Of a stretch of 64,000 bases of DNA, positions 57,827-57,970 are shown one piece after another (position 1 is the stretch's first letter; every line of letters begins with the position of its first letter). Origin of the DNA: Alphaproteobacteria bacterium (GTDB taxonomy: Bacteria; Pseudomonadota; Alphaproteobacteria; RF32; CAG-239). The stretch lies in contig JAZQXC010000014.1 in NCBI GenBank assembly GCA_045632645.1, positions 104,637 to 168,636 on the forward strand, given 5' to 3'. A program made the translations under genes and the position numbers. The notes beneath the pieces were generated by a model. The model saw nothing but the letters and a program-made list of their open reading frames with translations, searched no databases and had not been told where the DNA came from.

Positions 57827-57970
57827 ATCTTTCATGAGTGGGGCAAGCGCTCGGAATGTTCGCCAAAGATTTCATTGCCATAGCATGTTTTATTACATAA
57901 ATTTCTTTTAAGTAGCTTATCAATGCTAATCGAACAGGCGTAAGATGAGTTATTTAGAAAGGAATTCGAT

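Follow-up and report, generated by a model that had tools for sequence, protein, structure and literature searches.

The window, meaning the whole stretch of 64,000 nucleotides analyzed here, carries two paralogous genes on its plus strand. Gene 1 (57971..59389) encodes a 472-aa cytoplasmic protein with a subtilisin fold without the catalytic His and Ser, and gene 2 (61691..63079) encodes its 462-aa paralog. Each is preceded on the same strand by a leader of 138 nt (57833-57970) or 139 nt (61552-61690), counted from where transcription is predicted to begin up to the ATG. An ABC gene (59455-61395) lies between the two paralogs, unlike in a 97%-identical MAG (L001, 5001-10263), where one paralog directly follows the other (leaders at 4859 and 6517) and the ABC exporter gene comes after both; judged from these sequences, its placement in the window is a putative recent local rearrangement or insertion. 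A GNAT acetyltransferase gene (63133-63615) follows gene 2. Just upstream of the first promoter lies a Zeta-toxin/PezT-like kinase gene (56837-57730; Pfam PF06414, E=3e-46), whose only neighbor is a divergent PHP-domain gene (55887-56711), with no obvious small antitoxin gene beside it; the same gene pair also precedes the homolog at two other loci (L005 and L007).

What kind of protein do the two genes encode? Searches of Pfam and NCBIfam yielded no match for it, PF00082 included, whereas its distant sequence homologs carry PF00082. An AF2 model (pLDDT 89.4) matched subtilisin BPN', PagA, and PatG with a Foldseek probability of 1.0, in line with the subtilase fold that the original prediction had assigned to the downstream proteins. 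Aligned with true S8 homologs and subtilisin BPN', the family keeps the catalytic Asp (AIID) but has lost His64 and Ser221 throughout, while the true S8 homologs (P0083-P0104) keep both catalytic His and Ser. The product is thus, as far as its residues tell, a pseudo-enzyme, a putative pseudo-subtilase with the S8 fold but no Asp-His-Ser triad. In the same alignment, subtilisin and true S8 proteins included, Cys251, His194, and His216 are invariant or nearly so, and Cys251 is invariant within the family. Compared with S8 peptidases, the regulated protein shares the fold and the Asp and differs by the missing His and Ser, the lack of PF00082, the lack of a signal peptide (by inspection of the N-terminus only), and extra N-terminal helices. 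These helices make up a domain of ~80 aa (encoded at 57971-58225 and 61691-61945), about five helices bundled together and carrying the motif QH(V/I)(I/V)AKEYGFxSW; this domain is the best-conserved part of the protein, is specific to the family, and is absent from the true S8 relatives. Against Pfam at E<=10 the domain gave nothing meaningful and no known RNA-binding family, and when modeled alone it reached a pLDDT of 58.6, too low for a fold search. An unrelated contig (L046) carries the 24-aa N-terminal motif alone.

The two leaders have diverged far less than the genes behind them. They are 86% identical (119/139 nt), whereas the coding sequences (57971-59389 versus 61691-63079) share 64% of their nucleotides and only 52% of third codon positions, with 54% amino acid identity in a global alignment and 51% by BLASTP. 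The first 80 codons reach 67.5% amino acid identity against the 54% overall. These values agree closely with the original estimates of ~85% for the leaders, placed above the coding sequence, and ~65% for the first 80 residues. The alignment of the two segments is co-linear from the promoter to the ATG, and exact 27-mers from both conserved blocks occur in the 64-kb window only at the two leader sites (chance expectation, 0), so that the two co-linear and highly similar leaders first noticed in the sequence are borne out. A third-position identity of 52% implies that silent sites are near saturation, and yet the leader is scarcely altered.

Is the leader conserved beyond this genome? A profile of the protein, run against a species-representative genome collection, identified 43 loci encoding the family (L001-L043), all in uncultured low-GC MAGs that were deposited as Alphaproteobacteria and come from the human gut, rumen, and colon. 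The leader is present at every homolog locus with upstream sequence (42 genome loci), down to 34% protein identity, and is absent at the two loci (L044 and L045) of true S8 relatives without the N-terminal domain. As a check independent of the protein, a metagenome collection was scanned with a degenerate pattern that combined the two RNA blocks of highest conservation. The pattern matched 90 stretches, of which a covariance model confirmed at least 18 (18 of the 80 loci listed), and all 18 confirmed leaders sit directly 5' of the same protein family. The other 62 of the 80 are chance matches according to the covariance model; the 17 nonmatching loci that were inspected lie in high-GC sequence that looks coding-like by eye, and the chance matches include a sequence from one abundant gut species and an ilvC-like soil gene (by reading of its translation). 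Together, the 42 genome and 18 metagenome leaders give 60 instances and 50 distinct sequences. The covariance model, which scores copy 2 at 149.5 bits, finds no further copies elsewhere in the window or in the 5-kb flanks on either side of the loci.

Across the 48 further distinct copies, the leader keeps 56 to 85% identity to copy 1, compared to 34 to 59% for the proteins, and carries compensatory changes, so that it neither diverges like synonymous sites nor loses its pairing. This supports the original view that selection acts on a cis-regulatory RNA and that the similarity is not duplication hitch-hiking. Under that neutral alternative, the leader would be a functionless leftover of a recent duplication or gene conversion. 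The duplicated unit does also take in the promoter and a similar hairpin upstream of it, as such an event would predict. Against it stand the saturated silent sites beside an 86% identical leader, as well as conservation with compensatory changes in 50 distinct sequences from many MAGs. Moreover, copy 2 looks closer to orthologous leaders than to copy 1 (in the alignment by eye; not counted), which argues against local gene conversion. The third-position contrast, the family-wide conservation of the leader, and the covariation described below rule the neutral reading out, and we leave it virtually no probability.

Both leaders are preceded by a predicted promoter. In copy 1 (57798..57826, plus strand) it consists of TTGACA at 57798-57803, a 17-nt spacer, and TATAAA at 57821-57826; in copy 2 (61517..61545, plus strand) it consists of TTGACA, a 17-nt spacer, and TAAAAC. 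The transcript of copy 1 is predicted to start at ~57833, about 7 nt past the -10 hexamer and 2 nt 5' of the first conserved hairpin, P1 (57835), which shortens the ~165-nt leader originally proposed to a transcribed part of ~138 nt. A TTGACA-like -35 element and a TATAAN-like -10 element stand at a fixed distance from P1 at 41 of the 43 family loci; TTGACA is exact in most of them, the spacer is 16 to 18 nt, and the promoter ends ~8 nt 5' of P1. The fixed distance of a near-consensus promoter places the mRNA 5' end, as a prediction, at P1, and the transcript most likely starts at this hairpin. Terminator-like hairpins lie upstream of both promoters, at 57755-57775 (AGCCACCUAGCAAAUAGGUGG-U-run) and 61478-61499 (AACCAUCUACAAAGUAGGUGG-U-run), suggesting that the repeated unit comprises terminator, promoter, leader, and gene.

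The conserved object within the leader is an RNA fold of six helices, derived from an alignment of 35 leaders (A3) and later of the 50 distinct ones (A5): P1, the pseudoknots PK1 and PK2, and the tip stem, upper stem, and lower stem of a long hairpin, P3. In copy 1, P1 (57835..57853) pairs UGAGUG (57835-57840) with CGCUCG (57848-57853), the family consensus being UGAGYK with CGCUCG. Its loop, G-GGCAA-G, holds the 5' strand of PK1 (GGCAA, 57842-57846), which pairs with UUGCC (57875..57879) ~30 nt downstream of the loop. Between them runs a conserved single-stranded joiner with the consensus G-N-D-UGUYCG-CCAAAG, in which UGUUCG (57857-57862) is the 5' strand of PK2 and CCAAAG (57863-57868) is unpaired and nearly invariant. 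A variable U-rich linker (57880..57900) ending in a conserved ACAUAA/ACAUAG leads to P3 (57901..57965). The base of P3 pairs the anti-Shine-Dalgarno strand AUUUCUU (57901-57907) with the Shine-Dalgarno (SD) sequence AAGGAAU (57959-57965); above it come an upper stem of 11 bp (57911-57921 with 57944-57954) and the tip stem (GCU, 57925-57927, with GGC, 57937-57939). The tip loop carries the PK2 partner, CGRACA in the family and CGAACA (57931-57936) in this copy.

The same fold lies on the plus strand at 61554..61685 in copy 2, with P1 at 61554-61559 and 61567-61572, PK1 formed by GGCAA (61561-61565) and UUGCC (61595-61599), and PK2 formed by UGUCCG (61576-61581) and CGGACA (61650-61655). The unpaired CCAAAG lies at 61582-61587, the lower stem of P3 joins the anti-SD (61620-61626) to the SD (61679-61685), the upper stem joins 61630-61640 to 61664-61674, and the tip stem joins 61644-61646 to 61656-61658. 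The motif runs up to the start codon in every family case. About 10 unpaired bases are conserved in at least 96% of the sequences and can be regarded as invariant: G31, C40, A42-G45, U75, A81, A112, and U113.

How well is this fold supported? In A5, the 38 pairs of the six helices form standard pairs in 96.8% of 1,895 cells, and sliding the 3' partners by 1 to 3 columns as a control lowered this to 36 to 49%. Double-sided changes were found at 14 pairs in 76 cells, compared to 22.8 +/- 6.1 in shuffles; none of 500 shuffles reached the observed value on any measure, although the shuffle statistics are inflated by the relatedness of the sequences. An independent MAFFT alignment gave the same pairing picture, and when every pair of columns was scanned without bias for conserved runs of 4 pairs or more, the six longest conserved helices recovered were exactly these six. 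Within P1, among the 50 sequences, pair 9-28 is A-U in 33 and G-C in 17, and pair 8-29 is G-C in 37 and A-U in 7. Within PK2, pair 37-116 is C-G in 42, U-A in 5, and U-G in 3, with no mismatch, and the two window copies themselves differ here, with U-A in copy 1 (UGUUCG/CGAACA) and C-G in copy 2 (UGUCCG/CGGACA). P3 is paired in 97% of cells and its tip stem in 99%. PK1 is likewise paired in 97% of cells, with one A-U swap (L042), and in the two most divergent leaders (L006 and L033) both of its strands are replaced by different, mutually cognate 6- to 7-mers. The rebuilt cognate duplexes have energies of -5.6 and -4.4 kcal/mol, compared to +1.1 to -1.2 kcal/mol with each other's strands or with those of the window (W2). 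G-U pairs account for 17% of cells, and the sense RNA is 96.8% paired versus 79.5% for the antisense; this asymmetry indicates that the fold belongs to the sense RNA and also argues against a DNA operator. A small CGG/CCG hairpin proposed by RNAalifold (A3 columns 24-26 with 32-34) was dropped, as it competes with P1 and PK2, both of which covary on two sides.

The inverted segments CATTG/CAATG and TAGC/GCTA, originally flagged as a possible local structure, pair in only 77% and 66% of cells, and their covariation does not exceed that of shuffles. Their bases are used otherwise: CAUUGCC supplies the 3' strand of PK1, and UAGC/GCUA belong to the upper stem and tip stem of P3.

The most direct consequence of the fold concerns the ribosome-binding site. 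The SD is paired in the minimum-free-energy structure of 49 of the 50 leaders, with a mean pairing probability of 0.93, and P3 alone, a nearly continuous duplex of ~20 bp, has a folding energy of about -18 kcal/mol. Nothing resembling an intrinsic terminator occurs in the leader, and no terminator variant was seen in the family, which removes the attenuator option of the original prediction and leaves SD sequestration as the expression platform. The search for a conserved helix of an alternative (ON) state, such as AUGU with ACAU or CCAAAG with the anti-SD, yielded only chance-level 4-bp candidates in the column-pair scan, indistinguishable from several plainly spurious ones, and these were rejected. 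Because the SD is paired within the one conserved fold, which is compact and under strong purifying selection, we take this fold to be the closed state, in which the pairing of AUUUCUU with AAGGAAU at the base of P3 would hide the ribosome-binding site. The leader, ~135 nt, would then control translation of the gene directly downstream.

Such a structure might not be a switch at all. P3 and the pseudoknots could form a constitutive element that sets mRNA half-life, RNase III processing, or permanently low translation, or they could act as an RNA thermometer. The single conserved fold, for which no conserved alternative helix was found, and the long and nearly continuous P3 duplex are what such an element would display, and, as in fourU thermometers, the strand opposite the SD is rich in U. 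Nevertheless, two pseudoknots and ~10 invariant unpaired bases exceed the needs of stability, processing, or thermosensing. Thermometers of the fourU/ROSE type are short hairpins without further architecture, and their stems are weak and rich in mismatches, whereas P3 is strong; the hosts also live at the constant temperature of the gut, according to their record titles. We therefore hold a constitutive or thermosensing role to be improbable.

A second candidate is translation of the short upstream ORF. A 14-codon ORF is indeed present at the equal position in both window leaders (start codons 57856-57858 and 61575-61577), as originally described, but it is not a coding unit that the family conserves. 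It can be as short as 7 codons or exceed 30, in two leaders it reaches the main ORF without meeting a stop, and the CATTGCC block is translated in either of two frames, as GFIA... or as VIHC... in the peptide. The family leaders have no SD upstream of this ORF, whereas the main ORFs have strong SDs. A conserved peptide was rejected on these grounds. In attenuation of the erm/cat type, ribosomes on this ORF, initiating at the conserved NUG, would open the 5' arm of P3 and expose the main SD. This would fit a first codon that is always a usable start (ATG in 34, TTG in 7, GTG in 2, and never CTG), a stop that falls at or inside the anti-SD arm in the window and in about a third of the family, and the masking of the SD by P3, as in ermC. 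The conserved UG of the start is, however, explained by PK2, in which it lies, and several other ORFs stop well upstream of P3. The variable length and frame, the missing SD, and the position of the UG indicate that conservation tracks base pairing and not codons. Of the features that define ermC/cat attenuation, the leader shares a short upstream ORF and the sequestration of the main gene's SD in a hairpin; a conserved ORF that has an SD of its own and encodes a conserved stalling peptide was not found, the peptide, frame, length, and SD all being variable or missing, and conserved pairing extends to two pseudoknots that attenuation does not need. Attenuation of this type is thus highly improbable.

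Does the leader belong to a known RNA family? Of the 4,227 covariance models of Rfam 15, the only one to reach its gathering threshold anywhere in the window was RNase P (a class A bacterial RNA at 26192-26563, 264.9 bits). At E<=10, copy 1 and a divergent leader (L036) gave only junk far below the gathering scores, and nine related loci yielded tRNAs only. Neither a plasmid collection (distant blastn) nor viral contigs (pattern scan) contained a leader match. Literature searches by keyword and by sequence string returned no match, the string hits being unrelated PCR primers, and none was present in 200 of the 408 supplementary files of a structured-RNA survey of the human microbiome (PMC8040213). 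The leader is a previously undescribed family of structured cis-regulatory RNA, although the kind of element is already known, and so far it occurs only with a single pseudo-protease family of uncultured Alphaproteobacteria from the gut.

The leader is probably a riboswitch-like translation switch. It has the conserved covarying structure with invariant junction bases, the sense-strand location in a 5' UTR, and the SD-sequestering platform of a riboswitch. Aptamers typically show such an architecture, a double pseudoknot whose junction bases do not vary. In the translational OFF riboswitches preQ1-II, preQ1-III, SAM-II/SAM-V, NAD+-II, and guanidine-III, the SD lies within a pseudoknotted aptamer or is clamped by it, and for several rare riboswitch classes, too, the association is with one gene family. 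The leader resembles those OFF riboswitches in its place in the 5' UTR, its loop-to-distal-strand pseudoknots, its invariant unpaired junction bases, and an SD inside the conserved fold. It differs from them in its length of ~135 nt, its two pseudoknots, its ~20-bp SD-masking hairpin, and the lack of any sequence or structure match in Rfam; in addition, the gene downstream is a pseudo-protease here and not a transporter or biosynthetic enzyme. By this analogy, an effector would bind a pocket formed by G31, C40, A42-G45, A112, and U113 together with the two pseudoknots and would thereby set the locking of the SD. We propose that the effector is a small molecule and that the bound state turns translation off, a direction suggested by the known pseudoknot riboswitches with the SD in the aptamer, which work so. 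A new riboswitch class of exactly this description, with a small-molecule ligand and an OFF bound state, is a tentative assignment that we regard as quite possible, if somewhat short of probable. Several points weigh against it: all 60 instances precede one protein family, no regulon points to a metabolite, and autoregulation fits equally; P3 is so stable that translation without a helper is hard to explain; and, besides the missing conserved ON helix, the promoter and transcript start are predictions.

In autoregulation, the pseudo-subtilase would bind the double pseudoknot of its own mRNA, perhaps through the N-terminal helical domain, and stabilize the SD-masking state. The motif and the protein family co-occur without exception, including in the protein-independent search, and neither the motif nor the N-terminal domain occurs with the true S8 relatives (L044 and L045). 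Loss of the catalytic His and Ser makes the product more likely a binding protein than a protease, and its N-terminal 80 residues are the best conserved. On the other hand, the RNA core is essentially invariant between two paralog clades that share genomes at 34 to 44% protein identity, a situation that one shared effector fits better than two co-diverging protein-RNA pairs; neither the database comparison nor the poor isolated model of the N-terminal domain speaks for RNA binding. Ribosomal-protein leaders (the S15 and L20 pseudoknots) and the thrS operator offer a precedent, with a one-to-one link to a gene family and a pseudoknot involving the ribosome-binding site, but their proteins are known RNA binders whose leaders mimic the primary RNA target, whereas here the protein has a subtilisin fold without known RNA-binding activity. 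Taken together, autoregulation is the leading alternative, possible although we consider it unlikely. The perfect co-occurrence, the family-specific N-terminal domain, and the lost catalytic residues would further allow the pseudo-subtilase to be a protease-derived pseudoenzyme that binds RNA and represses translation, with its own leader as a dedicated cis-RNA operator and the former substrate cleft perhaps serving to sense a small ligand or a peptide, a role that we consider quite unlikely. Uncertainty lies mainly with the effector and not with whether the RNA exists or how it is built.

If a small-molecule ligand is assumed, as in the favored riboswitch-like reading, the genes around the pseudo-subtilase give a hint of its nature. 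A GNAT acetyltransferase (~158 aa in the family) and an MsbA/CydC-like ABC exporter (~650 aa) are each encoded downstream on the same strand at 19 loci, and the pseudo-subtilase, GNAT, and ABC exporter may form one functional module. The frequent presence of the latter two suggests that the ligand is a compound that is modified and exported. Two ancient paralog clades occur side by side in one genome with an identical RNA core, which suggests that both would respond to a shared signal. A GC-rich hairpin usually sits between the pseudo-subtilase gene and the GNAT/ABC genes. In the window, hairpins follow the stop codons of gene 1 (59405-59425; CGGGAGGG-UAUUC-CCCUCCC) and gene 2 (63084-63103; GGGGAGGG-UUUU-CCCUCCCC). 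Like hairpins (GGGAGAG...CUCUCCC) come after most homologs in other MAGs, with a T-run if no gene follows and none before GNAT/ABC genes; they could be leaky terminators or stabilizers of the mRNA end.

The lineage that carries this leader consists of uncultured gut and rumen Alphaproteobacteria with almost no known regulatory biology, and the leader family is well supported. Under either reading, the element is a small RNA with defined helices, for which disruptive and compensatory mutants can be designed from the alignment. If the pseudo-subtilase binds the leader, this would be an unusual instance in which a protease fold was recruited for RNA-based autoregulation. If the leader is a riboswitch, it would represent a new aptamer, possibly with a new ligand, and its link to a dead subtilase, a GNAT acetyltransferase, and an ABC exporter would provide the first handle on the role of this orphan module.
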